Assembly (NCBI GenBank): GCA_964613915.1
Contig: CAZTIW010000014.1
Span: forward strand, 30,928-94,927
Length of the DNA stretch: 64,000 bases
Reading direction: 5' to 3'
DNA from: an uncultured Thermoanaerobaculia bacterium
Lineage (GTDB): Bacteria > Acidobacteriota > JBCCFW01
Positions 380 to 46,443 of the stretch are shown here, piece after piece (position 1 is the stretch's first letter; every line of letters starts with the position of its first letter). A program made the position numbers and the translations under genes. The notes under the pieces are model-generated. The model was given only the letters and a program-made list of their open reading frames with translations. It was not told the origin of the DNA and did no database searches.

Positions 380-2965
380 ATGCGTCACCTCGCCGCTCCG
401 CGCCTCCGCGTCGCCGCCCCCGCGCTGTTCGCGCTGCTCGCGCTCGCTCTCGACGTCGCGATCGCGACGGCGTCCGGCCAGGCTCCCAAGAACTTCGGTC
501 GCGACCGCTCGGTGGACATCGTTCACGCGCGCATCCAGCTCGCGCTGGACATCCCGTCGGAGACCATTCGTGGCGCGACCGAGCTGACGGTGCGCGGCAT
601 CGCCGGCTCGACCGCCGAGGCGGTCTTCGACGCCGTGCGCTTCGATGTCACGAGCGTCACCGCGGGTGACGCGCCGGCCGCGCATGACAACGACGGGCAG
701 ACGCTGCGCGTGACGCTCGCGCCGCCGCTCGCCGAGGGGGAGGATCGCGTCATCCGCATCTCCTACTCGGCCCGCCCGCGCAACGGGCTGTACTTCGTTC
801 ACGGACCGGGCGCGCGGCGCGACCTCGACCAGTGCTGGTCGCAGGGCGAGACCATGGAGAACCGTCACTGGTTCCCGGTTCACGACGATCCGTCCGAGCG
901 CATGACGTCGGAGACGGTCATCACCGTGCCCGAGCCGCTGGCCGTCGTCTCCAACGGCCCGCTGCTCTCGGTGACGCCAGCCGGACCGGGCCTGCGCACG
1001 TTCCACCACCGCATGGACTTCCCGCACGTTCCGTATCTGGTGTCGATCGCCGTGGGCGACTGGGCGACGCGGTCGGAGACCTGGGAGGGCAAGGAACTCA
1101 CGTACCACGTGCCGCGCGATCGCGAGGCCGACATGGACCGGTCGTTCGCGAACACCGCCAGAATCCTGAGCTTCCTGTCGAAGGAGACGGGCGTCCCCTA
1201 CCCGTACCCCGTGTACCGGCAGACCTGCGTCTCCGACTACACGTTCGGCGGCATGGAGAACATCGCCGCGACCACGCTGACGGACAGGACGCTGCACGAC
1301 GAGCGCGCGCATTCGGACTGGACCTCGGACAGTCTCGTTGCTCACGAGGCGGCGCATCAGTGGTTCGGCGACTACGTGACCTGCCGCGACTGGAGCGACA
1401 TCTGGCTGAACGAGGGCTTCGCCACGTACTACGCCGCGCTCTCGATGGGGGAGCTGCTCGGTCCCGACCAGCTCGTCGTCGAGCTCGATGGCATGCGGCA
1501 GAACGCGATCGACGCCGACCGGGGGGACAAGCGCCGGCCCGTCGTCACGAACCGCTGGCATGACGAGATGGAGCTCTTCGACGGCCATGCCTACGCGAAG
1601 GGCGGGATGATCCTGCACGCGCTGCGGCGCGAGCTCGGCGATGACGGGTACCGTCGCAGCGTGACCGCCTGGCTGAAGCGGTTCGCCGGGTCGTCCGCGA
1701 ACACGCACGACTTCATCTCGGTGATCGAGGAGCAGACGGGCCGCGACGTGTCGCGCTTCTTCGACCAGTGGATCTTCGGCAGCGGTCAGCCCGACCTTGC
1801 CGTCTCGTGGACGTGGAAGGACGGTTCGTGCGCCGTCACGATCGTGCAGGGCCAGGCGGCGGACGACCCCGACCGTCTCTTCAACGTCCCGCTCGACCTG
1901 CAAGTGCTCGGCGAAGGGCTCGCGACGGATCGCTCGGTCCGGCTCAGCCGGCGCGAGGAGACGTTCCACGTTCCCTGCGAGACGCGCCCCGAGGCGGTCG
2001 TGGTGGATCCGCAGGGCTGGCTCCTGCGCACGATCAAGATGGACCGGCCCGATCGCGAGGCCGCGTGGGTCCTGCGCCACGCCCCGCACCTGCTGGCGCG
2101 CCTGGAGGCCGCGCGCGAGCTGAAGGAGTCTGCCGGGCTCGCCGGGGCGCACGAGGCGCTGGTGGACGCGGCGCGGTCGGCGCCGGCATGGGCGTTGCGT
2201 CGCGCGGCCTGCGAGTCGCTCGAGCGCTCGGGCCCGGGCGGCGCGGCCGTGCTCATCGGCGTGCTCGAGAGCGACGCGGACACGCGCGTGCGCACGGCGG
2301 CGGCGGCGGCGCTGGCCTCGCATCGAACGCCCGCGGCGCAAGCGGCGCTGACGCGCGCCCTGGCCGGCGCGCCGTCCTACGCGGTTCGCGGGGCGGCGGC
2401 GCGCTCGCTCGGACGCTTCGACGATCCCGCTCTCGATCGCGTTCTCGAGGCAGCGGCCTCGCAGCGCTCGCATCGCGAAGAGGTCCTCGGTGGCTGTCTC
2501 GACGCCCTCGCCCAGCGGCACTCGCCGAGGCTCCTCGCGCTCGCGCAGCGCCTCGCCTCGGCCCGCCAGCCGTACGAAGTGCGGGCACGAGCGATCGGCG
2601 CGCTCGGCCGCCTCGCGAAGAACGCGGTGGACGCCGGCGAGCGGCGCCGCGTGGTCGCGGATCTGATCGAGTGGCTGGACGAGCCTCATTATCGCGTGCG
2701 GCTCGCGGCCTCGGAGGCGCTCGTGACGGCGGCGGACGAGGCGGGACTGCCGGCGCTCCGCCGCATCGCGGCCTCGCATCCCCACGAGCTCACGCGCGCG
2801 CGCGTGGCCCAGCACGCCAAGCAGCTCGAGGCGGCCGTCGTCGCGAGCGCGAGCGTCGCCGAGGTCCGCCGGTCGCTCGAGGAAGAGCGACGGAAGCGCG
2901 AGGCGCTCGAGGAGCGCGTGCGCAAGCTCGAGGCGCGCCTCCCGCCGGCGGACGAGTCGAAGTGA
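380..2965 (+). CDS. M1-family zinc aminopeptidase (aminopeptidase N-like) with N-terminal signal peptide and C-terminal HEAT-like repeats plus coiled coil
   Basis: ATG at 380 preceded by AGGAG; GGMEN exopeptidase motif; HEAAH-X18-E zinc site; Ala/Leu-rich repeat C-terminus ending in a charged coiled coil. Confidence 0.9.
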   Translation: MRHLAAPRLRVAAPALFALLALALDVAIATASGQAPKNFGRDRSVDIVHARIQLALDIPSETIRGATELTVRGIAGSTAEAVFDAVRFDVTSVTAGDAPAAHDNDGQTLRVTLAPPLAEGEDRVIRISYSARPRNGLYFVHGPGARRDLDQCWSQGETMENRHWFPVHDDPSERMTSETVITVPEPLAVVSNGPLLSVTPAGPGLRTFHHRMDFPHVPYLVSIAVGDWATRSETWEGKELTYHVPRDREADMDRSFANTARILSFLSKETGVPYPYPVYRQTCVSDYTFGGMENIAATTLTDRTLHDERAHSDWTSDSLVAHEAAHQWFGDYVTCRDWSDIWLNEGFATYYAALSMGELLGPDQLVVELDGMRQNAIDADRGDKRRPVVTNRWHDEMELFDGHAYAKGGMILHALRRELGDDGYRRSVTAWLKRFAGSSANTHDFISVIEEQTGRDVSRFFDQWIFGSGQPDLAVSWTWKDGSCAVTIVQGQAADDPDRLFNVPLDLQVLGEGLATDRSVRLSRREETFHVPCETRPEAVVVDPQGWLLRTIKMDRPDREAAWVLRHAPHLLARLEAARELKESAGLAGAHEALVDAARSAPAWALRRAACESLERSGPGGAAVLIGVLESDADTRVRTAAAAALASHRTPAAQAALTRALAGAPSYAVRGAAARSLGRFDDPALDRVLEAAASQRSHREEVLGGCLDALAQRHSPRLLALAQRLASARQPYEVRARAIGALGRLAKNAVDAGERRRVVADLIEWLDEPHYRVRLAASEALVTAADEAGLPALRRIAASHPHELTRARVAQHAKQLEAAVVASASVAEVRRSLEEERRKREALEERVRKLEARLPPADESK

Positions 2966-3522
2966 GTCGTCGCGAGCGCTGGCGCATCATCGAGACGCGC
3001 TGGGTCGAGCGAGTCGCCTCGCGGGAACGGCACGCCCCGCTCCGCCTGTTGATGCTCATCGCGACCCGCCTCGCGGACGGCTGGGGACTCGCGATCCTGA
3101 TTCCCGCGGCCTTGCTGATCGGCGGCCGGAGCGAGGGCGTGGCGGCGGTCGGACTCGGGACGATCTCCGCCATCGCGATTGCGCTCATCGTGCATGGGAC
3201 GAAGGCGATCGTGCGCCGTCGCCGGCCCATCGGCGTCCGTGTCGGGCGGCCCATCGGCGCCCCGGATCTGCACGCGTTTCCTTCCGGGCACACGGCGCAT
3301 GCGTTCGGCATGGTCATCGTCACCGCCTGGCTCTCGCCGACGTTCGCGGCGATCACGCTCGGCGTGGCCTGCCTCGTGGGCATGTCGCGCGTGTTCTTCT
3401 GCCTGCACTACCCGACCGACGTTCTCGCCGGCGCGGCGTTCGGCCTCGCCATCGCCTGGCTGAGCCTCCTGGTCACGCGCGCGTCGGGCCTGCTCGACTG
3501 GATGGCGCGCCTGGCGGGGTGA
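2962..3522 (+). CDS. PAP2-family (type 2 phosphatidic acid phosphatase-like) membrane phosphatase
   Basis: GTG start overlapping the aminopeptidase stop (GTGA); PAP2 motifs KAIVRRRRP, PSGH, SRVFFCLHYPTD; several TM helices. Confidence 0.75.
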   Translation: MSRRERWRIIETRWVERVASRERHAPLRLLMLIATRLADGWGLAILIPAALLIGGRSEGVAAVGLGTISAIAIALIVHGTKAIVRRRRPIGVRVGRPIGAPDLHAFPSGHTAHAFGMVIVTAWLSPTFAAITLGVACLVGMSRVFFCLHYPTDVLAGAAFGLAIAWLSLLVTRASGLLDWMARLAG

Positions 3523-3572: not shown

Positions 3573-4175
3573 TCAGCCCTTCCTCGCCCTGACCGCCTCC
3601 CGCAGCCCCGGAACGTCGCGCGACCAGGCCTCCGCGTCGCCGTAGGCGACGAACTCCGCGTAGCGCGAGTGAGGGCCGAGCACGCGACGGGCGTGCTTGA
3701 TGGGGCACCAGTACTGCTCCGTGCGGGCGGCGACCTCGCGGGCGAAGGCGAGCACGCCGTTGGCGTAGCTGCAGTAGTCGCAGTTCAGCTTCTCGATCCA
3801 GTTGAGATAGTCGAGCCGGTGCCGGTCGATCGCCACGTAGCGCGATCGGTCCACGCGGGCGATGCCGTAGATGCGAAAGCACGTCGCCTGGAACATGATC
3901 GTCGTGAGATCGAGCAGCACGAGCGGGACGAGCATGAAGTAGATGATCGGAGCCGACAGGACGGTGCGCAGGCTGCTGTTGAGCAGGAACCGCGCGACGC
4001 TCTGACGCGCCTTGAGATGAAGCGCGCTGGTCTCCGCCTCGAAGCGCACGCGACCGCGCTCGATCCGGTACCGGAACACGTCGGCCGCCTGCTGCAGATC
4101 CTGCTTGAGTTCCTCCTCGAGCTCGGATTCCAGCGCCCGGATCCTCGCGACGAGATCAGCGACCTTGGTGCTCAC
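3573..4175 (-). CDS. Hypothetical protein: N-terminal coiled coil, hydrophobic segment, Cys/His-rich domain
   Basis: 200-aa ORF with balanced composition; motifs CDYCSY and YWCPIKH; the opposite-strand ORF is Arg/Ala junk. Confidence 0.5.
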   Translation of the reverse strand: MSTKVADLVARIRALESELEEELKQDLQQAADVFRYRIERGRVRFEAETSALHLKARQSVARFLLNSSLRTVLSAPIIYFMLVPLVLLDLTTIMFQATCFRIYGIARVDRSRYVAIDRHRLDYLNWIEKLNCDYCSYANGVLAFAREVAARTEQYWCPIKHARRVLGPHSRYAEFVAYGDAEAWSRDVPGLREAVRARKG

Positions 4176-4396
4176 GGGACAAGCCAGACGCCGCCATCGC
4201 CTCCGGGAGGGGGAACCGTGGCGGAAGCGACTCCCGCCGAGACCGTGTCACGACCGCGAGCGCCGCGCCAGTCACCGACAGGGGCGCGACGCGACGCGCC
4301 GGGAGGCGGCGCGACTGCATGCGTCGGAAACAGCGGCAGCCGCGCTTGACAGGCTTCGGGACGTGGCGCAGGCTCTCTGCATTGGTCCGGTCCGAT

Positions 4397-4419
4397 AGTG
4401 GAACTGGACTAGTCCACTT
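4397..4419. promoter_or_regulatory. Palindromic operator candidate immediately upstream of the MocR-type regulator start
   Basis: AGTGGAACTGGACTAGTCCACTT contains a perfect 12-bp palindrome TGGACTAGTCCA ending about 9 bp before the ATG at 4425. Confidence 0.35.
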
Positions 4420-4424
4420 GAGCC

Positions 4425-5969
4425 ATGCCAGCACCCGCATCCCTCAGCATCCAGCTCGACCGCGACTCCGCGATCCCGCTCGTGGAGCAGCTCGCGACCA
4501 GCATTCGCCACGGCATCGAGTCGGGCGTGCTCGTGCCGGGCACGCGGCTGCCGTCCACGCGGACGCTCGCCGCGCGCCTCGGCCTGCACCGGCAGACGAT
4601 CGTGGACGCGTACCGGCGGATCGAGAGCGACGGCATGCTCGAGCAGCGCCGCGGCTCGGGCGCCTTCATCACGGCGCCATCGCCCGGCGGCGCCTGCGTT
4701 CCGGGCGATGCCGCGCGCGCGGGCGAGCGGGTCTCGCAAGCGCTGCTGTCCTACGAGCGGCGCGCGGGCCGGCCGCCCCTTCCGGCGTCGAGCCGGGACG
4801 CGCTGGACCTGGCCGGCCTCGTCCCTCACGAGCGTGACTACCCGTCGGAGGCCTTTCAGGAGAGCATGCGGAGCGCCCTGGCGCGCCGCGGCGGCAAGGT
4901 CCTCGGCTATGGTCCCGCCGCGGGCGATCCCGAACTGCGCGAGGTTCTCGCGAAGCGCCTGAGAGCGCGCGGCATGAAGGTGGACGCCGCGGGCTTGCTG
5001 ATCGTGGGCGGCGCGCAGCAAGGGCTCGACCTGCTGTTTCGCGCGATGCTCGATCCCGGCGATGCGGTGCTGACCGAGGCGCCGACGTACCACATGTGCC
5101 TGGATCTCCTGGCGTTTCACCGCTGCCGCGTCGCGCCCGTGCCCGTGCTGCCGCGAGAGGAATCCGGCCTGTCCTCGCTCGACGCGGCGGCGCTCGCGGA
5201 GGCGCTCGACCGCCATCGGCCCGTGCTCGCCTACGTCATGCCGACGTTCCAGAACCCGACCGGCCTCACGCTCGATCTCGCCGCCCGTCGCACGCTGGCG
5301 CGCACCCTCGCGGACGCGAAGGTCGTGCTCGTGGAGGACGACTACGAGGCGGACATGAGGCATGGCGGCGAGGCCCTGCCCGCCGTCTCGTCGCTGTCCG
5401 AGAGCGGCGACTCGGCGTACATCGGCACGCTCAGCAAGGCGCTGTTCCCGGGCCTGCGCGTCGGCTGGATCGCGGGGAGCCCGGACGTGCTGGCGCGCGT
5501 CGCGAAGGTCAAGCGCGTCTCGGATCTCTCGGGGCCCGTCGTGCTGCAGGCCGTGGCCGCGGACCTGCTCGAGAGCGGCGCCTACGACCGTCACGTGACG
5601 AACACCGTCGCGGAGGCAGCCGATCGCATGCGCGCGCTGCGCGCGGCTCTCGAGGCGCAGATGCCGGAGGGCTGCCGCATCACGCGGCCGCTGGGCGGGC
5701 ACGTGGCCTGGCTCGAGGCGCCCGCGCTCTCCGGGCGGGCCATCGCCGAGAAGGCGGCGGCGCGCGGCGTGCTCGTGACGCCGGGCGAGGACTTCTTCGC
5801 CGGGCCGGCGGCCAGCCCCGCCGTGCGCGTGTCCATCGCGCGCATCGCCCCCGGGGACGTGGAGCGGGCGGCCGAGCGGCTGGCGCGAGGCGTGGCGGAT
5901 GCGGTGCAGGAGGCGCGGGGGCGCGCGGCGCGGCGCGGTCGCGACGTGGATTCCCCCGTGGCGGTGTGA
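4425..5969 (+). CDS. MocR/GabR-type transcriptional regulator (GntR HTH + class-I aminotransferase-like domain), PdxR-like by context
   Basis: N-terminal GntR winged HTH (TRLPSTRTLAARLGLHRQTIVDAYRRIESDG); aminotransferase-like domain with LSKALFPGLRVGWIAG; directly upstream of pdxS/pdxT. Confidence 0.85.
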   Translation: MPAPASLSIQLDRDSAIPLVEQLATSIRHGIESGVLVPGTRLPSTRTLAARLGLHRQTIVDAYRRIESDGMLEQRRGSGAFITAPSPGGACVPGDAARAGERVSQALLSYERRAGRPPLPASSRDALDLAGLVPHERDYPSEAFQESMRSALARRGGKVLGYGPAAGDPELREVLAKRLRARGMKVDAAGLLIVGGAQQGLDLLFRAMLDPGDAVLTEAPTYHMCLDLLAFHRCRVAPVPVLPREESGLSSLDAAALAEALDRHRPVLAYVMPTFQNPTGLTLDLAARRTLARTLADAKVVLVEDDYEADMRHGGEALPAVSSLSESGDSAYIGTLSKALFPGLRVGWIAGSPDVLARVAKVKRVSDLSGPVVLQAVAADLLESGAYDRHVTNTVAEAADRMRALRAALEAQMPEGCRITRPLGGHVAWLEAPALSGRAIAEKAAARGVLVTPGEDFFAGPAASPAVRVSIARIAPGDVERAAERLARGVADAVQEARGRAARRGRDVDSPVAV

Positions 5970-6026
5970 GGCGAAGCGCCGGAGTCCCGGCGCGTCGGGA
6001 TCGGAACATGAGATGAGGTACACGAC

Positions 6027-6917
6027 ATGAGTTCTGCTGCGAACGAACTGCCGAGGCTCAAGACGGGACTGGCCGAGATGCTCAAGGGTGGCGTCATCAT
6101 GGACGTCACGGACGCCACGCAGGCGCGCATCGCCGAGGACGCGGGCGCGTGCGCCGTCATGGCGCTCGAGCGCGTGCCGTCCGACATCCGCAAGGAAGGC
6201 GGCGTCGCGCGCATGTCGCCCGTCGAGAAGGTCGAGGAGATCATGAAGACGGTCTCCATCCCCGTCATGGCCAAGTGCCGCATCGGCCACTTCGTCGAGG
6301 CGCTCATGCTCCAGGAGATGGGCGTGGACTTCATTGACGAGTCCGAGGTCCTGACGCCCGCGGACGAGCAGCATCACGTGGACAAGCACGCGTTCAAGAC
6401 GCCGTTCGTGTGCGGCGCGCGGAACCTGGGCGAGGCGCTGCGCCGCATTTCCGAGGGCGCCGCGATGATGCGCACGAAGGGCGAGGCAGGCACGGGCAAC
6501 ATCGTCGAGGCCGTGCGTCACATGCGCGCGGTCACGGGCGAGATCCGGCGGCTCGGCGCCCTGCGCGACGACGAGCTCATGGACGCCGCGAAGGAGCTGC
6601 GCGCGCCGTACGAGCTCGTGCGCCGCGTGGCCCGCGAGGGGTGCCTGCCCGTGCCGAACTTCGCGGCGGGCGGCGTCGCGACCCCTGCGGACGCGGCCCT
6701 CATGATGCACCTGGGCGCCGAGTCGGTCTTCGTGGGATCGGGCATCTTCAAGTCGTCGGATCCCTCGCAGCGCGCCAAGGCCATCGTCCAGGCCGTCACG
6801 CACTGGAAGGACGCCAGCGTCCTGGTGGATGTCAGCCGCGGCCTCAAGGAGGCGATGCTCGGCATCGAGATCAGCACGATCCCGCCGGGCGAGCGGCTGG
6901 CCGAGCGCGGATGGTGA
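6027..6917 (+). CDS. pdxS: Pyridoxal 5-prime-phosphate synthase, synthase subunit PdxS
   Basis: Near full-length match to the highly conserved PdxS/SNZ sequence ([41 protein letters not shown]). Confidence 0.95.
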
Positions 6918-7561
6918 GCGAGGCGCCACTCCGGGTCGGCGTCCTCGCGCTCCAGGGAGACTTCGCGGCGCATGCCGGCGCGCTCGAGCGCGCGGCGACC
7001 GCCGCCGGGCTCGCGTGCGATGTCCGCGAGGTGCGGCGTCTGCCGGATCTCGCCGGGATCGAGGCGCTGGTCCTGCCGGGCGGCGAGAGCACGACGCTGC
7101 TGAAGCTCCTGTCCATCGAGGATCTGGGTCTGGCGATCCGGCGCTTCGTGACGGAGCAGGGGGGCGCGGTCTTCGGCACGTGCGCCGGGGCCATCCTCGT
7201 GAGCCGCCACGTCCGCAGTCCCGACCAGGCGTCGCTCGAACTGCTGGACGCGACGATCGAGCGGAACGCGTATGGCCGGCAGGTGGATTCCTTCATCACG
7301 ACGATCGAGCCGCAGCCGGGCAGCGGACTCGGCTCGCGGCCGATCGAGGCCGTCTTCATCCGTGCGCCGCGGTTTCTGGCGACCGGACCCGGCGTGGACG
7401 TGCTCGCGCGCCACGGCGGCGAGCCCGTGCTGGTGAGAGAAGGGCGCGTCCTGGCGGCGACGTTCCACCCGGAGATGACCCCCGATGACCGCATCCACGC
7501 GACGTTCCTGCGCGGGGTTCGGGCGGCGGCCGTCACTCCTGTCGCGAGCCCTCGTCGCTGA
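6911..7561 (+). CDS. pdxT: Pyridoxal 5-prime-phosphate synthase, glutaminase subunit PdxT
   Basis: ATG overlapping the pdxS stop (ATGGTGA); class-I glutamine amidotransferase with LPGGESTT and GTCAG nucleophile motif. Confidence 0.9.
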
Positions 7562-8588
7562 CCCTCGCGAACTCCAGGAGAAGCGCCGAGATCGCCGTGC
7601 CCACGTCCTCCGGGCCCGAGACCGGACCGGGCAGGAACGCGAAGGATCCGTGACGCCACGTCAGCAGCGTGCTGAGAGCCTGCATCGAGTCGGGCGCCCC
7701 CTCGAGCTCGGCGCGCATGACGCGACCCCCGCTGACGAAGATCTTCCCGACGACGGACTCGCGCGCGAGCACCAGCGAACCGGGCTTCTTCTCGTACTCC
7801 AGTAGCGAGAGCACCGTCGGCACGCCGATGTCGTCGAGGACGCCGCGCAGCGACACGTGGCGGCCCGCGCGGCCCTCGCGCGGCCCGACGCGGCGCAGGC
7901 GGATCATGAGCTCCTCGTCCGTGAACGGCTTCGGAATGAAGTCGCGCACGCCGCGGCGGAAGGCCTGCGCGCGCAGCGTCGCGTCGGCGTCCTCGCCCAT
8001 CAGCACGACCGCCACGTCGGAGAGCGATGGCTCGCTGGAGAGGAGCTTCAGGACGAGCAGGGGATTCGAGCCCTGGGCTTGCGTGTCCGCCAGGAGAATG
8101 TCGGGCACGCGATCGCGGCAGGCCTTGACGGCGGCGGCGAGGCTCTCCTCGGCGCGGGCGTCGAAGCCGGCCGTGTTGAGATTGTTGACGAGCCGCTCGC
8201 GCAGGGGCTCGCTGCGATCCAGGATCACGATGGCCAGCGGTTCGTCCTCGATGGGGCCGGACATGCCCTGCTCGAGCGAAGCGACGAAGTCCAGCCACCC
8301 CGCCGGCGGCGCGCCGTCCATCTCGAGGCCGATGCCGGGCGAGCGGCCGACCATGCGGGCCGTCGGCTCGTCGAGGACATGGGCGACGTGCGCCGAGAAC
8401 GACACCTGGGATCGGTTCGGGAGCGTGACGGTGACGGCGGCCTTCGTGCCCGCGCCGACGGCCTCGGCAGTCGGCACGTACAGGCCGTGGCGCGTGACAT
8501 CGGTCGTGGTCGCCGAGAGCACGCCGCTTGCATGACGCACCTCGACGGGGCAGGTGGCGGCCAGCCTCTTGTCGCGGTCGTTCTTCAT
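7533..8588 (-). CDS. Response regulator with N-terminal PilZ-like domain, receiver domain and C-terminal DUF4388-like domain
   Basis: ATG at 8588 overlaps the upstream GNAT stop; PilZ-like RDKRL...DVTRHG...GIGLEMD; receiver domain ending KPF; C-terminal segment resembling DUF4388. The Arg-rich 5-prime part of the long ORF was excluded. Confidence 0.7.
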   Translation of the reverse strand: MKNDRDKRLAATCPVEVRHASGVLSATTTDVTRHGLYVPTAEAVGAGTKAAVTVTLPNRSQVSFSAHVAHVLDEPTARMVGRSPGIGLEMDGAPPAGWLDFVASLEQGMSGPIEDEPLAIVILDRSEPLRERLVNNLNTAGFDARAEESLAAAVKACRDRVPDILLADTQAQGSNPLLVLKLLSSEPSLSDVAVVLMGEDADATLRAQAFRRGVRDFIPKPFTDEELMIRLRRVGPREGRAGRHVSLRGVLDDIGVPTVLSLLEYEKKPGSLVLARESVVGKIFVSGGRVMRAELEGAPDSMQALSTLLTWRHGSFAFLPGPVSGPEDVGTAISALLLEFARVSDEGSRQE

Positions 8589-25555: not shown

Positions 25556-26875
25556 CTACTTCCCGAACCGCCAGGAGGCCGTGGCCGTCAGCGCGAGGGC
25601 GAAGGAGTCGTAGCTGGACTCGAACTCGTTGCCCGTGCCCTTCGTGTCCAGGGGCTCGAAGCGCACCGCCTGCAGGCCCACGTCGATCATGAGCCGGCGC
25701 GTCTGCCGCGTCACGCCCGCCGACAGCAACACGCGGTCCGAGTCGGGGAGGAGCGGATCGGCCGTGCGCTTCGGGACGGGCGACGCGTCGAAGCCGAGGC
25801 CCGCCGCGAGCCACCACCGATCGTTCATCTTGCGGCGCGCGCCCGCGCGCAGGGCCCAGGCGTCGTGCCAGGTCGGCGTGAGGAACTCGTTGATGACGAG
25901 CTCGTAGCCGCCCGCTTCGATGGTCTCGAGATCCACGATGACCTCGTCCATCACGGACCAGTTCGTCCAGGTGGCGGCGACCTCGAAGCTCCACCGCGCG
26001 CCGACGTGGCCCACGCCGGCCCAGGCGGTCGCGGGCAGGGTGAGCGCCGTGCTGGCCGGCCCGTCCTGGAAGAGCGTCTCGATGGCCTGGTCGAGCGAGA
26101 AGGCGCCGAGCGGCACGATGGTGTAGTCCACGTCCCCCGCGAACGTCAGCTCGGTCTGGCCGTGAAACGCGAGGCCGAACCGCCAGCCGGACGCGCCCTG
26201 CCATCGCGCGCCGAGGCGGTAGCCCCACGCCGAGCCATCGCCCCTCAGGTCGGCCTCGGCCGAGTGACCGCGGCGGAAGATCGACAGGTCCACGTCCCGC
26301 ACGAGGTTCACCTTGCCCGTCGTCCACGTCGGGCCGAAGCCCAGCGACCAGCCGCGCGGCAGGCGGACGGCCGCGAGCGCGGCCGCCTGCACGGTCTGCA
26401 GGTCGGCGACGCGCGAGATGAACCGGCCCTCGTAGTCCGCGGGCCACTCGGTGGCGAGCCCGAACGGCGCGTTGATGGACAGGCCGAAGGCCCACCGGCC
26501 GGGGCTGCCGTCGGCGCGCGTCGCGAGACCGCGCGACACGTACAGGTGCGGCACGTCGAACGCGTCGCGCGCGCTCTCGACCTCGAGGCCCGTGGCGAGC
26601 GGCGTCGAGGCAACATCGAGCGACAGGTGCGTGACGCCCGCGCTGAGCGACCAACCGCTCAGCGTGGTCATGCCGGCGGGGTTGTAGAAGAGCGTTTCGG
26701 GGCTGTCGAGGGTCGCGACGGCCGCGAGGCCCTGCGCGAGCGCGCGCGCGCCGTGGTCGTTGATGGCGTAGCCAGAGGCGCGCACGGTGGCGGGCGCGCC
26801 GACGCACACCAGCGCGAGCGCGAGCGCCAGCGCCGCGGCCCGCGTCGTGAGGCTGGCGACTCGTCGCGTGCTCAC
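25556..26875 (-). CDS. FadL/OMPP1/TodX-family outer-membrane hydrophobic-compound transporter
   Basis: Signal peptide then YNPAGM motif typical of FadL; alternating beta-strand pattern; C-terminal aromatic residue; GTG start overlapping the upstream lipase stop. Confidence 0.7.
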   Translation of the reverse strand: MSTRRVASLTTRAAALALALALVCVGAPATVRASGYAINDHGARALAQGLAAVATLDSPETLFYNPAGMTTLSGWSLSAGVTHLSLDVASTPLATGLEVESARDAFDVPHLYVSRGLATRADGSPGRWAFGLSINAPFGLATEWPADYEGRFISRVADLQTVQAAALAAVRLPRGWSLGFGPTWTTGKVNLVRDVDLSIFRRGHSAEADLRGDGSAWGYRLGARWQGASGWRFGLAFHGQTELTFAGDVDYTIVPLGAFSLDQAIETLFQDGPASTALTLPATAWAGVGHVGARWSFEVAATWTNWSVMDEVIVDLETIEAGGYELVINEFLTPTWHDAWALRAGARRKMNDRWWLAAGLGFDASPVPKRTADPLLPDSDRVLLSAGVTRQTRRLMIDVGLQAVRFEPLDTKGTGNEFESSYDSFALALTATASWRFGK

Positions 26876-30686: not shown

Positions 30687-30840
30687 GCCCGCTCAAGCGC
30701 GATCCCGGGCGCGCCGATGGATCTCCCGGACCTGTCCCGGGCGCGCTCGCGCGTTCTCCCTTGCGCTTGCGGCCGCCCGCCACGGATCATCACGGGGCCC
30801 GGCCGAATCGTCGGCGGCCCAACCCCGAGACCCTGCTGCG

Positions 30841-42792: not shown

Positions 42793-43494
42793 TCAAGTTT
42801 CGGACGCTGCCTCGGCGCTCGGGCAGAGGGGCGCGAGTTCGCACTGGCCGCAGCGGGGCTTGCGAGACGTGCACGTCTCGCGGCCATGCAGCACCAGCGA
42901 GTGGCTGGTGACGGTCCACTTGTCGCGCGGCAGCACGTCCATGAGATCACGCTCGATGCGGACGGGATCCTCGTGCCGCGTCCATCCGAGGCGGCGCGCC
43001 AGGCGCGAGCAGTGCGTGTCCACGATGATCGCGGGCTGGGAGAACAGCGTGCCGCGCAGGACGTTCGCGGTCTTGCGGCCGACGCCAGGCAGCGCCGTCA
43101 GGGCGTCGAGATCCGTCGGCACCTCGCCGCCATGCCGCTCGCAGAGGGCCATCGCCATGCCGATGAGGTTCTTCGCCTTGCTGCGAAAGAACCCCGTCGA
43201 GTGGACGATGCTCTCGACGTCCGCCGGGTCCGCCTGCGCGAGACGAGCGGCTGTCGGATAGCGCGCGAAGAGCGCTGGCGTGACCATGTTGACGCGGGCA
43301 TCCGTGCACTGCGCCGACAGGATCGTCGCCGCCAGGAGCTGGAACGGCGTGTCGTGGTGAAGCGCCGTCGTCGCCGAAGCATGCAGGCGCTCGAGGATGG
43401 CGATGATCGCCGCGACGCGGGCCGGGTGCGTCGCGCCGCGCGATCGCGCGAGCGTCGGCACGAAGCGCACGCGGCGCCGGGGGCGAGCCTTCAC
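42793..43494 (-). CDS. nth: Endonuclease III (DNA glycosylase/AP lyase)
   Basis: HhH-GPD motif LPGVGRKTANV, catalytic region DTHCSRLARR, [4Fe-4S] loop C-X6-C-X2-C-X5-C; GTG start overlapping the PolX stop. Confidence 0.9.
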   Translation of the reverse strand: MKARPRRRVRFVPTLARSRGATHPARVAAIIAILERLHASATTALHHDTPFQLLAATILSAQCTDARVNMVTPALFARYPTAARLAQADPADVESIVHSTGFFRSKAKNLIGMAMALCERHGGEVPTDLDALTALPGVGRKTANVLRGTLFSQPAIIVDTHCSRLARRLGWTRHEDPVRIERDLMDVLPRDKWTVTSHSLVLHGRETCTSRKPRCGQCELAPLCPSAEAASET

Positions 43495-45239
43495 GCGCGG
43501 TCCCGCGTGAGGGCGCTGGCATCGCGCGTGTTCAGGACGTGCTCCGGCCCGAGTCTCGCCTTGCGAGCGATGTCCACGCCGTGGCGCAGGAAGTCGAGCT
43601 CGCTCACGCGGTGGGCGTCGGGGTTGATGCAGGCGAGGACGCCGGCGTCGGGGAGCCGGCGCGCCTGCCGCCAGTCCATGTCCAGCCTGTTGGGCCAGGC
43701 GTTGATCTCGATGGCCACGTCGTTCTCGCGGCAGGCGCGCAGCACGGCGTCCAGATCGAATCCGAACCCCTCGCGCTTCAGGAGGAGCCGTCCCGTGAGA
43801 TGGCCGATCACGCGCGTGCGGGGATCGGAGGCGGCGCGCACGAGCCGGCGCGTCATCTCGGCTTCCGTCATGCGGAACTGCGAATGGACCGACGCGATGA
43901 CGAAGTCGAAGGCGTCGAGGACCTCGTCCGGGTAGTCCAGCGAGCCGTCGGCCAGGATGTCGGACTCGACGCCGCGGAGGATCCGGATGGTGAACCGCGA
44001 TCGCAGCGCGTCGAGTTCCTCGGCCTGCGCGGCGACGCGCTCGATGCTCATGCCGTTCGCGTAGGCCGCCGTGCGCGAGTGATCCGAGATGCCGACGTAC
44101 TCGTGGCCGCGTTCCTGGGCGCCGGCGATCATGTCGGCCAGCGTGTCGCGGCCGTCGCTCCACGTCGAGTGGACGTGCAGGATCCCGCGCAGGTCGGCGA
44201 GCTCGACCAGGCGCGCCGTCTTCGCGGGCGCGTCGTCCACGTCCGAGGGCTCCTCGCGGATCTCGGGCGGCAGGTACGGCAGGCCCAGCTCGCCGAGAAT
44301 GGCCGCCTCGTCATCGCTTCGGATCAGGCGCTCCGCCGCGCCCGACCCGTCGTCGCCGAAGAGGCCGAACTCGTTGAGCTTCATGCCGCGGCTGCGCGCG
44401 CGCGCCCGCAGGGCCTGGTTGAATTCCTTGCTGCCCGTGAAGTGCAGCAGGGCCGCGCCGCGCTGCGCCGGCGACACGACGATGAGATCCGCCTGCACGC
44501 CCGCGTCGAGCCGCACGCTGCAGCGGTCCTCCCCGGACGACACGACGGAGGTCACGCCGGGCAGCCGCGTGAACGCCGCGACCACGGCGCCGGGGTTGTC
44601 CGACGTCGCGAGCAGGTCCACGTCGCCGATCGTCTCGCGGCGGCGGCGCAGCGAGCCCGCCACGTCGGCCGTCTCCACGCCGGGAAGGCCGCGCAGGGCC
44701 GCGATCAGGTCGGCGGCGATGGACTCGGCTTGCGGGATCAGGCGGCGCGAACGGTTGCGCCTCGCGAACTCGATCCCCTCGAGGATCGTGGCTTCGGATC
44801 TGGCGCCGAAGCCGGTCAGCTCGCGCACGCGGCCCTGCCGGCACGCGTCTTCGAGCTCATCGAGGCTCGCCACGCCCAGGTCCCTGCAGAGCGCCATCGC
44901 CTTGCGCGGACCCAGGCCGGGGATCGTCTCGATCTCGGAGAGACCCGGCGGGAGCCGCGCGCGCAGCTCGTCGAGGTATCGCAGGCCGCCGGTGCGCCAG
45001 AGCTCGGTGGCCTTCTCGACCAGCGCCTTGCCGAAGCCCTTCTGGGCCGCGAGCTCGCCCGAGGCGATCATCTCGCCGAGATCGCCCTCCATCGTTTCGA
45101 GGGCGCGCGCGCCGTTGACGTAGGCGCGCGCCTTGAACGGGTTCTCGCCGAGGGCCTCGAGCATCTCGGCGATCGTCCGGAACGCGTCGGCGACATCCTG
45201 TCGATCCAGCGGGGGAGGCGCGCCGGTGGAGGCCTCCAT
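43491..45239 (-). CDS. DNA polymerase X family protein with C-terminal PHP phosphoesterase domain
   Basis: Pol-beta-like N-terminus with HhH (IPGLGPRKA); PHP domain start HVHSTWSDG; start set at MEASTGAPP, Arg/Ser-rich leader excluded. Confidence 0.85.
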   Translation of the reverse strand: MEASTGAPPPLDRQDVADAFRTIAEMLEALGENPFKARAYVNGARALETMEGDLGEMIASGELAAQKGFGKALVEKATELWRTGGLRYLDELRARLPPGLSEIETIPGLGPRKAMALCRDLGVASLDELEDACRQGRVRELTGFGARSEATILEGIEFARRNRSRRLIPQAESIAADLIAALRGLPGVETADVAGSLRRRRETIGDVDLLATSDNPGAVVAAFTRLPGVTSVVSSGEDRCSVRLDAGVQADLIVVSPAQRGAALLHFTGSKEFNQALRARARSRGMKLNEFGLFGDDGSGAAERLIRSDDEAAILGELGLPYLPPEIREEPSDVDDAPAKTARLVELADLRGILHVHSTWSDGRDTLADMIAGAQERGHEYVGISDHSRTAAYANGMSIERVAAQAEELDALRSRFTIRILRGVESDILADGSLDYPDEVLDAFDFVIASVHSQFRMTEAEMTRRLVRAASDPRTRVIGHLTGRLLLKREGFGFDLDAVLRACRENDVAIEINAWPNRLDMDWRQARRLPDAGVLACINPDAHRVSELDFLRHGVDIARKARLGPEHVLNTRDASALTRDRA

Positions 45240-45243
45240 GGGC

Positions 45244-46443
45244 TCAGGGCGACGGGGCGGCCGCGCGGAGCGGCCGCGTGGCGACGGTCTCGGCGACCTC
45301 GAGCCGGAGCAGGTCGGGATCGCTCGCGTCGAAGCGCAGCCAGGCGAGGCCCTCCGGCACCGGCGTGAAGTAGCGCTCGGGGAACGTCCACGCGCCACCC
45401 TCGCGCACGGCGAGCAGCCCCCACGTCGAGTCGAGACCGGAGGGGCGGGACTCGTCCACCACGACGAGGGCCTCGGTGACGCCGCCCCGGTCGCGCGCGT
45501 CCGTGACCCGGATCCACGTGCCGGCTTCCGGCGGCGCCGGGCGCCCCAGCGAGGTGACGGCGCCCGTGCGCGGATCGGCGGCGATCAGGTCGGTCATCGC
45601 CGCCGTGCCGATCGTGCGCGGGGCGATGAGGAGCCGATCGGCCCCGCCGAAGATCTGCCGCGTGGAGAGAGTCCAGCGGAGATCCGGGCGATCGCCGGCG
45701 AGTTCGACGCGCGCCCACGCCTTGCCATCGGCGGTCGCGACCAGGGCATCCTCGAGCAATCCGCTCTCGAGGGGCGTCACGCGCACTTCGGGCTTGCGCG
45801 GCGCCTCGAGAGGCTCGGGCACGCGGTTGAAGCGGCTGCCGCGGCCGACCCGGGCATGGTCCATCGTGGCCCGGGGCATGATCGCGAGCATGCCCGCCTC
45901 GCTGCCGATCCCGCGCGCCTTCTCGCGGGCGGCGAGGTTCCTCCAGAGGTTCTCGTCGAACGGCTCGACATCCACGTGCATGGCCGCGGCGGTGCCGCGC
46001 GCATCGCCCCACGCGCGAACGCGCCACTCGGCGCCGGGCTCGGCGGCCTCCACGCGGCGCAGGAGCGACGCATCGGCTGCGAGAGGAATGTGGACCTCGC
46101 CCGTGGCCGTCTTCAGTCGCGGCAGGGGGAGGTCCTGGGGCCGGTAGAGCGACATCCAGACCGCCGTGCGCGCGTCGAGGTGCGGCTGCAGCACGCGTCC
46201 GGCCGGGATGGGCGAGCGCTCGTCCGTGTCAGCCCAGCCGAGAGCGCGTCGTTCCTCTCGGGAGTCGCGCGGGGCCGGGTCCGGCGTGGCCGTGCCGCCG
46301 GGAGGAACGAAGACCGGGGTCGCGGGGCGGGCCGGCGCTTCGGCGGCTCGCGCCGGAAGCGGAGCCGTCGCGGCGGCGATCAGCAGGGCGCAGGGAAGAA
46401 GACGAAGCAGCATGAGCCAAAGCCTAGCGCGGCACGGCCGCAA
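45244..46443 (-). CDS. Secreted hypothetical protein
   Basis: Signal peptide LLRLLPCALLIAAATAPLPARA; start is either the non-ATG codon at 46443 or the ATG at 46413. Confidence 0.5.
   Translation of the reverse strand: MRPCRARLWLMLLRLLPCALLIAAATAPLPARAAEAPARPATPVFVPPGGTATPDPAPRDSREERRALGWADTDERSPIPAGRVLQPHLDARTAVWMSLYRPQDLPLPRLKTATGEVHIPLAADASLLRRVEAAEPGAEWRVRAWGDARGTAAAMHVDVEPFDENLWRNLAAREKARGIGSEAGMLAIMPRATMDHARVGRGSRFNRVPEPLEAPRKPEVRVTPLESGLLEDALVATADGKAWARVELAGDRPDLRWTLSTRQIFGGADRLLIAPRTIGTAAMTDLIAADPRTGAVTSLGRPAPPEAGTWIRVTDARDRGGVTEALVVVDESRPSGLDSTWGLLAVREGGAWTFPERYFTPVPEGLAWLRFDASDPDLLRLEVAETVATRPLRAAAPSP

Follow-up and report, generated by a model that had tools for sequence, protein, structure and literature searches.

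A pdxR-like mocR gene leads a conserved co-directional pdxS-pdxT cluster and is preceded by a predicted three-box operator in an uncultured Thermoanaerobaculia bacterium

We analyzed a 64,000-nt stretch of DNA from an uncultured Thermoanaerobaculia bacterium (assembly GCA_964613915.1, contig CAZTIW010000014.1, positions 30,928 to 94,927; hereafter the window), focusing on a MocR-type regulator gene and on pdxS and pdxT, the genes for pyridoxal 5'-phosphate (PLP) synthase that follow it in the same orientation. The results established the identities of the three genes and showed that their linkage, a set of TGGAC-type boxes with their spacing upstream of the regulator, and the PLP-site residues of the regulator are conserved among its relatives. 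With moderate confidence, we read the cluster as a PLP biosynthesis operon led by its own sensor-regulator, that is, a self-repressed, tricistronic unit of a pdxR-like mocR, pdxS and pdxT. This layout is an uncharacterized but widespread variant of a known regulatory system, and its regulatory sign for pdxST is probably opposite to that of the known PdxR proteins. No description of a pdxR-pdxS-pdxT operon was found in the literature searched. The features discussed are collected in Table 1.

Table 1. Coordinates of the regulator-pdxS-pdxT cluster and its upstream control region, numbered from the first nucleotide of the window.
Feature	Position	Strand	Remarks
Putative -35 hexamer TTGACA	4346-4351	+	CTTGAC (4345-4350) unchanged across the footprint of five loci
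Putative weak -10 hexamer CAGGCT	4369-4374	+	17 nt after the -35 hexamer
Box 1, direct half-site TGGTC (within ATTGGTCCGGTCCGA)	4383-4387	+	Around +2 to +7 relative to the predicted start of transcription
Extended imperfect inverted repeat AGTGGA...TCCACT round the palindrome	4397-4419	.	Flanks window-specific
Boxes 2 and 3, perfect palindrome TGGAC-TA-GTCCA (TGGACTAGTCCA), predicted main operator	4405-4416	.	Unique in the window; kept upstream of orthologues
MocR-type regulator gene	4425-5969	+	GntR winged helix-turn-helix and aminotransferase-like domains; PdxR-like by context
Regulator-pdxS spacer, 57 nt	5970-6026	+	GC hairpin 5976-5993; pdxS Shine-Dalgarno GAGG 6015-6018
pdxS, PLP synthase lyase subunit	6027-6917	+	NCBIfam NF003215, 505 bits (cut-off 395); Pfam SOR_SNZ, 2.5e-105
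pdxT, PLP synthase glutaminase subunit	6911-7561	+	Pfam SNO, 1e-42

The regulator gene encodes a protein of 514 aa, in which an N-terminal GntR winged helix-turn-helix (wHTH) domain (Pfam PF00392, 1.1e-14, residues 20-82) is followed by a C-terminal fold-type I aminotransferase-like domain (Aminotran_1_2, Pfam PF00155, 1.6e-39, residues 146-486). Its N-terminal 92 aa align with GntR-family structures and with residues 6-80 of Bacillus clausii PdxR. The gene starts at the ATG at 4425; a TAG at 4410-4412, in the centre of the palindrome, is an in-frame stop, so 4425 is the earliest possible start, and homologues align to the regulator N-terminus from residue 1. PdxS also passes the TIGR00343 model (464 bits against a cut-off of 438), and the pdxS stop and pdxT start codons overlap in ATGGTGA.

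We then compared the regulator with its relatives. About 19 close homologues share 45-67% identity with it, one of them from an Acidobacteriota metagenome-assembled genome (MAG), after which identity falls sharply to about 40%. A single-protein search of genome contigs returned just MocR paralogues of 27-39% identity (Pseudomonadota, Peptococcaceae) and no orthologue. An alignment of 18 clade members revealed that the PLP-site residues N277, D305, Y307, S337, K338 and R345 are invariant, the last three being carried by the motif SKALFPGLR. In aminotransferase 1x0m, the residue opposite K338 in the alignment is the SK lysine, and the spacing of 7 between K338 and R345 is that of K312 and R319 in GabR (PMC12220430). 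As judged from this alignment, the PLP pocket of the regulator is intact.

The gene order mocR-pdxS-pdxT, with all genes co-directional, was found in 9 of 9 other clade loci that reach the downstream gene (L006, L007, L008, L009, L089, L091, L092, L093 and L094), and pdxT follows pdxS wherever the DNA of a clade locus reaches that far. The same layout was present in 15 more distant loci, comprising 13 metagenome loci, the 6.45-Mb genome L096 and the Planctomycetota MAG L097; these include a sister clade at about 40% identity (L012, L014, L017), a low-GC clade (L063-L084), L041 and L076. No divergent pdxS was seen among the related loci examined. In a neighbour-joining tree of 89 related MocR proteins, the pdxS-linked regulators formed coherent clades, including that of the window, and 56 unlinked ones fell elsewhere; in the clade of the window regulator, pdxST lies downstream in all members with a readable flank. 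A Peptidase_M1-PAP2 neighbourhood upstream is common to most clade loci. A sequence-only reading of this DNA had described a MocR-type regulator 57 bp upstream of pdxS-pdxT and co-directional with them, and both the coordinates and the domains agree. It had also called the layout unusual, which holds when the layout is set against the divergent arrangement typical of characterized PdxR systems (though not strictly a defining trait) and fails among the relatives, where co-directional genes are the rule. Its concern that the regulator might cluster with a non-PdxR MocR subfamily was answered by the tree, which places the protein among pdxST-linked clades.

To evaluate the palindrome upstream of the regulator, we compared its occurrence with chance. 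The sequence-only reading had reported a perfect 12-bp palindrome about 9 bp before the ATG, embedded in a longer repeat; we found it at the position given in Table 1, with 8 nt separating the end of TGGACTAGTCCA from the ATG. The window, at 72% G+C, contains 69 perfect 12-bp palindromes compared with 44 +/- 6 in mononucleotide shuffles, and palindromy alone is not significant evidence for an operator. The specific pattern TGGACNNGTCCA (TGGAC-N2-GTCCA) occurs once in the 64 kb against 0.04 expected, and 4 of 100 shuffles had one. Six or more A/T positions are found in only 3 of the 69 perfect palindromes.

Conservation was assessed in 11 related loci, namely the window and 10 relatives at 45-67% protein identity. 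Upstream of the regulator, GGACNNGTCC was found 11 times within 1,870 nt, compared with 5 times in the remaining 130,923 nt, an enrichment of about 150-fold. Exact copies of TGGACNNGTCCA stand upstream of the regulator in L007, L009, L090, L091 and L093, GGACNNGTCC versions in L092, L094 and L006, and one-mismatch versions in L089 and L095. In seven loci (the window, L090, L009, L093, L007, L094 and L092), the motif is located between -13 and -29 relative to the start codon; it lies farther out in L091 and L006 (-82 and -88). The boxes travel with the regulator though the upstream neighbour varies, being PAP2, a kinase or a 200-aa open reading frame (ORF). Loss of the palindrome upstream of orthologues had been named beforehand as the observation that would count against an operator, and footprinting showed it to be conserved. 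The extended repeat in the window includes AGTGGAAC at 4397-4404 and GTCCACTT at 4412-4419. The outer AGTGGAAC copy (GTGGAA) was considered as part of the core operator and rejected, being not conserved in L089, L090, L009 and L093; this outer copy probably lies outside the predicted core.

The palindrome was compared with published boxes. The PdxR box of Corynebacterium glutamicum is given as AAAGTGGW(-/T)CTA in PMC4494728, which cites Jochmann 2011, and the window minus strand cAAGTGGACTA (4421-4411) fits it at 10 of 11 positions; the motif that the sequence-only reading had given for PdxR operators of Actinobacteria, as nearly matched here, was close to correct. PdxR boxes of Streptomyces coelicolor are GTGGAC/RTGGVY, and mutagenesis showed that the GTGGAC box matters (PMC12220430); GTGGAC on the window minus strand (4418-4413) is identical to the S. 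coelicolor R2a box. The TauR box CTGGACYTAA also has a TGGAC core (PMC4494728), indicating that the core is not PdxR-specific. The proposal that the palindrome is a PdxR operator is therefore sustained in part: the conserved boxes and the pdxST linkage speak for it, and the missed PdxR cut-off described below and the unspecific core limit it.

We further aligned the five closest upstream regions (window, L089, L090, L009 and L093) as a footprint and found four conserved blocks: CTTGAC, a weak -10, A(C/T)TGG(T/A)C and the palindrome. TTGAC(A/G/T) boxes are also present in L007 and L091. The equivalents of the putative -10 hexamer are CAGGCT in L089, again at 17-nt spacing, CATCCT in L090, CAATCA in L009 and GAGTCT in L093. 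From these elements, transcription is predicted to start near 4381, which would place the palindrome at about +25 to +36. The third block contains a direct half-site, box 1, whose spacing to the TGGAC of the palindrome is 21-23 bp (two helical turns) in all five loci and 22 bp in the window. The orientation of box 1 is slightly ambiguous, GGWCC being self-complementary; an exact TGGAC in L093 favours the direct reading. A pair of direct boxes with an inverted one would make this an ordinary three-box MocR operator, and this composition is the most frequent among MocR motifs, found in 32% of regulons (PMC5320631); it has also been described for the PdxR proteins of B. clausii and C. glutamicum. 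The sequence-only reading had noted neither the other, direct box, 22 bp upstream, nor the conserved promoter. No Rfam element was found in the leader, where the scan gave only a sub-threshold S15 leader match at 3983-4025 (E = 0.5), and the idea of an RNA element was rejected both for the leader (fold z = -1.31) and for the gap between regulator and pdxS (fold z = -0.79), there being no Rfam match above threshold.

We next considered whether pdxST could be transcribed separately from the regulator. The gaps between regulator and pdxS span 9-116 nt among the relatives, and those of 9 nt (L009), 17 nt (L093) and 24 nt (L007) leave no room for a promoter and an operator. In none of the loci did the gap or the final 120 nt of the regulator gene contain a conserved TGGAC-type box. 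In the 57-nt gap of the window, no intrinsic terminator was found, an Rfam scan gave no match, and the hairpin does not exceed shuffled sequence in stability (fold z = -0.79). A Shine-Dalgarno sequence precedes pdxS in every locus examined and is strong, and none precedes the regulator in the window or in any of the relatives' loci inspected. Given the short gaps, the lack of a gap box and of a terminator, and this Shine-Dalgarno pattern, we read the cluster as a single transcript.

These observations bear directly on an alternative in which the boxes at 4383-4416 would only auto-repress the regulator, while pdxST would be expressed mainly from a promoter of its own, situated either inside the regulator gene at its 3' end or within the 57-nt gap, with the apo-regulator as activator, acting at weak or divergent sites, and PLP as anti-activator. 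Such an arrangement would follow classical PdxR logic, in which all characterized PdxR proteins activate pdxST and repress pdxR (PMC5320631, PMC10450172, PMC12220430). Moreover, the sites at the S. coelicolor pdxST promoter are short 4-nt repeats that were missed in silico (PMC12220430), so unseen boxes could exist here, and the GC-rich gap hairpins of several loci could lower read-through. Set against the gaps of 9-24 nt, which leave no intergenic space, the missing box, the lack of a terminator-like site and a hairpin that has the stability of shuffled sequence, we regard a separate pdxST promoter as unlikely. The longer gaps (5976-5993 in the window, L089, L090, L091, L094, L095 and L006) repeatedly contain GC-rich stem-loops that lack a U tail, and the short gaps of L009, L093 and L007 have none; these structures might tune the ratio of regulator to enzyme expression or might be compositional.

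In the self-repressed tricistronic operon that we favour, transcription would proceed from the conserved promoter TTGACA-17-CAGGCT, some 45 nt ahead of the regulator ATG. The regulator, predicted to be a head-to-tail MocR dimer with an intact PLP pocket, would bind the three-box operator between the -10 and the start codon, consisting of box 1 (TGGTC) at the transcription start, box 2 (TGGAC) 22 bp downstream and the inverted box 3 (GTCCA). With all three boxes downstream of the -10, a bound regulator should prevent initiation or early elongation, and the operator position suggests repression and not activation. The regulator would in this way repress itself and, via co-transcription, pdxS and pdxT. 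Homeostatic feedback requires tighter binding by the PLP-bound form; this form is accordingly proposed as the better repressor, and low PLP would relieve repression. This agrees with the preference of B. clausii holo-PdxR for inverted repeats, and PdxR proteins repress their own genes (PMC10450172, PMC5320631). As the regulator lacks a Shine-Dalgarno sequence and pdxS has a strong one, we propose that the one transcript would be translated into low levels of regulator and high levels of enzyme.

The cluster was compared with three known PdxR systems. According to PMC4494728 and PMC5320631, which cite Jochmann et al. 2011, C. glutamicum PdxR is likewise a MocR-type, pdxST-linked protein with boxes in mixed direct and inverted orientation. 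Its gene is divergent from pdxST and shares an intergenic region with it, and the protein activates pdxST, whereas the window regulator comes first among co-directional genes, with every box placed downstream of the putative -10. In S. coelicolor, the R2 site of PdxR (SCO1417) also abuts the pdxR ATG, while pdxR is unlinked to pdxST (SCO1523/1522), whose own promoter PdxR activates (PMC12220430). B. clausii PdxR is a head-to-tail dimer with wHTH domains on flexible linkers (PMC10450172; PDB 7PQ9, cryo-EM complexes) and shares the operator of two direct boxes plus one inverted, its holo form preferring the inverted pair (PMC10450172). It differs in that it is an activator in a divergent layout, with inverted boxes far apart on a 48-bp fragment and the DNA wrapped over the aminotransferase-like core (PMC10450172). 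Suvorova and Rodionov (2016) found three-box motifs to be the commonest and predicted a 12-nt palindromic MocR motif for GabR2 of Pseudomonadaceae (PMC5320631). Neither Acidobacteria nor curated PdxR site sequences were found in the one supplementary file of that study that was searched, and Acidobacteria are absent from its main text too (PMC5320631).

Several points weigh against the self-repressed operon. A scan for consensus sigma-70 promoters called none upstream of the regulator, and the -10 hexamer CAGGCT fits the consensus at just 2 of 6 positions, a weakness that accounts for the silence of the scanner; it is conservation alone that would fix where the operator lies with respect to the promoter. 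The palindrome of L091 and L006 stands upstream of the putative -35, a location that would be consistent with activation, and in L007 the boxes flank the promoter on both sides. The activation of pdxST by every characterized PdxR, cited above, also speaks against repression. Furthermore, PLP abolishes the binding of S. coelicolor PdxR to DNA in vitro (PMC12220430); if this were valid here, the operon would be derepressed by PLP, contrary to what homeostasis requires. The geometry of the operator is a further difficulty: the two wHTH domains of one B. clausii dimer sit on distant boxes, the window pair forms a compact 12-bp palindrome, and half-site centres 7 bp apart are hard to square with a single head-to-tail MocR dimer on wrapped DNA (PMC10450172). 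Half-sites at this distance would need two dimers or flexible linkers, and their spacing resembles that of classical GntR/FadR sites. In addition, the regulator scores 282 bits with the NCBIfam PdxR model (NF052282) and misses its cut-off of 320, and B. clausii PdxR (7PQ9) is no nearer to it (80 bits) than GabR (84 bits).

We tentatively propose a more specific version of the operon, which we hold to be possible and less probable than the operon as such. In this version, both the regulatory sign and the binding mode would have switched, and the regulator, no longer activating a divergent pdxST in its apo form, would act as a PLP-dependent co-repressor clamping the compact FadR-like 12-bp palindrome and the direct box two turns upstream of it, with both lying downstream of the promoter, at the head of a tricistronic pdxR-pdxS-pdxT unit. 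This switch would cover the Acidobacteriota-centred clade and probably other co-directional clades too.

We also examined how firmly the regulator can be called a PdxR and what its effector may be. With the NCBIfam YczR model (NF052290), it scores 291 bits, short of the cut-off of 487, and this score ties with that for PdxR. All 18 clade members match both models (best E 4.6e-94 and 2.1e-90, which are E-values and not cut-off passes). PdxR comprises 11 non-clustering orthologous groups and is defined by regulon content, such as pdxST, pdxK and others (PMC5320631). By this regulon-content criterion the regulator strongly counts as a PdxR, and by sequence family not strictly; 'PdxR' is here a functional label, not a family assignment.

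The sensor domain raises a second alternative, in which the effector would be an amino compound or a keto acid and not free PLP, as GABA is for GabR, and pdxST expression would be tied to another metabolic signal, or unlinked genes would also be controlled and the pdxST linkage would reflect just part of the regulator's role. The best PDB matches of regulator residues 122-492 are archaeal and Thermus aminotransferases of the KAT/2-aminoadipate (AadAT) type (1x0m, 5e-55; 2egy, 4e-46), and the sensor domains of GabR and B. clausii PdxR match far less well, at about 1e-22. The invariant R468 is aligned to the R in the MRLNF segment of 1x0m. In class I aminotransferases, this position binds the substrate carboxylate. 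The domain may retain residual catalysis or respond to an amino- or keto-acid co-effector. These matches, the aligned R468 and the position of the regulator under the PdxR equivalog cut-off and level with YczR all favour a different effector; against it stand a linkage to pdxST that is strict and kept across phyla whatever the other neighbours, and the logic of end-product feedback, which is the simplest and has been documented for all PdxR proteins studied. We consider a different effector, or a wider set of target genes, improbable, and somewhat more so than a separate pdxST promoter.

A third alternative, that the blocks are not an operator of the regulator at all but promoter elements (TTGGTC-17-TGGACT as -35 and -10, with a very short leader), the site of an unrelated protein or a leader RNA hairpin limiting translation, can draw on the starts of boxes 1 and 2 lying 22-23 bp apart like -35/-10 hexamers, on a leader (4381-4413) that can pair box 1 with box 2 as RNA (-18.3 kcal/mol) and on the regulator's lack of a Shine-Dalgarno sequence, yet we hold it to be very improbable, as TGGACT is poor as a -10 and a better conserved TTGACA-17-nAnnCT lies upstream, the palindrome varies from -13 to -88 relative to the start codon and can stand before or after the putative promoter, the leader RNA folds no better than shuffled sequence (z = -1.31), and the sequence fits experimentally defined MocR/PdxR boxes. 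In addition, the arms keep TGGAC and GTCCA without covariation, and degenerate copies (L089, L092) break the pairing, a combination that is the signature of protein recognition and not of RNA structure.

The self-repressed operon would extend what is known of PdxR control. How PdxR controls PLP synthesis has been worked out only in a few Firmicutes and Actinobacteria, in all of which the regulator activates a separate pdxST unit; a different wiring, with the regulator first and in the same orientation and an operator placed where repression alone would be expected, occurs across Acidobacteriota, Planctomycetota and other uncultured lineages. If the reading is true, PdxR-type proteins could act with either sign, and in the more specific version the circuit would be the first in which a PdxR works by repression only. 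That version would also require one MocR dimer, or a pair of them, to bring wHTH domains head-to-head on half-sites 7 bp apart. The compact operator (TGGAC-N2-GTCCA plus one direct box) would serve for the study of how PLP switches binding between direct and inverted repeats. The analysis supports annotating such 'PLP-dependent aminotransferase family proteins' as regulators of PLP biosynthesis, and it leaves the general picture of vitamin B6 homeostasis unchanged.

Upstream motifs of other kinds were observed in the more distant clades. The sister clade has a near-perfect 22-bp palindrome, GATCTTGGTC-TA-GTCCAAGATC, ending 1-2 nt before the candidate ATG (positions about 470-497 in L012 and L014, and about 2940-2970 in L017). 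Sister clade and window share the same design, a palindrome abutting the start codon. In the low-GC clade (L063, L065, L068, L077, L079, L081 and L084), several AATTGGCTGGAT boxes in both orientations lie upstream of the MocR gene. One AATTGGCTGGAT copy overlaps the start codon of the regulator (ATGAATTGGCTGGAT, encoding MNWLD), so that an operator box would be part of the coding sequence.

Finally, we inspected the surroundings of the cluster. In L091, a second MocR-type gene of 464 aa (1704-3098, minus strand) lies divergent, upstream of the PAP2-mocR-pdxST cluster. In the window, a 200-aa ORF (3573-4175, minus strand) without a Pfam or NCBIfam match, for which the matching Logan contig carries a gene call, stands between the PAP2 gene (2962-3522, plus strand) and the regulator; in the relatives, PAP2 directly precedes the regulator, and the ORF looks like a lineage-specific insertion. 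On the other side, a gene on the minus strand (7533-8588) with PilZ, response-regulator receiver and DUF4388 (PatA_N-like) domains is convergent with pdxT, and the 3' ends of the two genes overlap by 29 nt (7533-7561). Further regulon members in the window were sought and rejected: one-mismatch matches, including those at 26281 and 45447, are at chance level (3 found against 1.57 expected), and the GGACNNGTCC matches at 30728 and 52377, like the one-mismatch ones, have no link to PLP genes, lie under long ORFs and are attributed to chance. The one-mismatch match at 45447 is near a PolX-type gene (43491-45398, minus strand) with HHH, DNA polymerase beta thumb and PHP domains.

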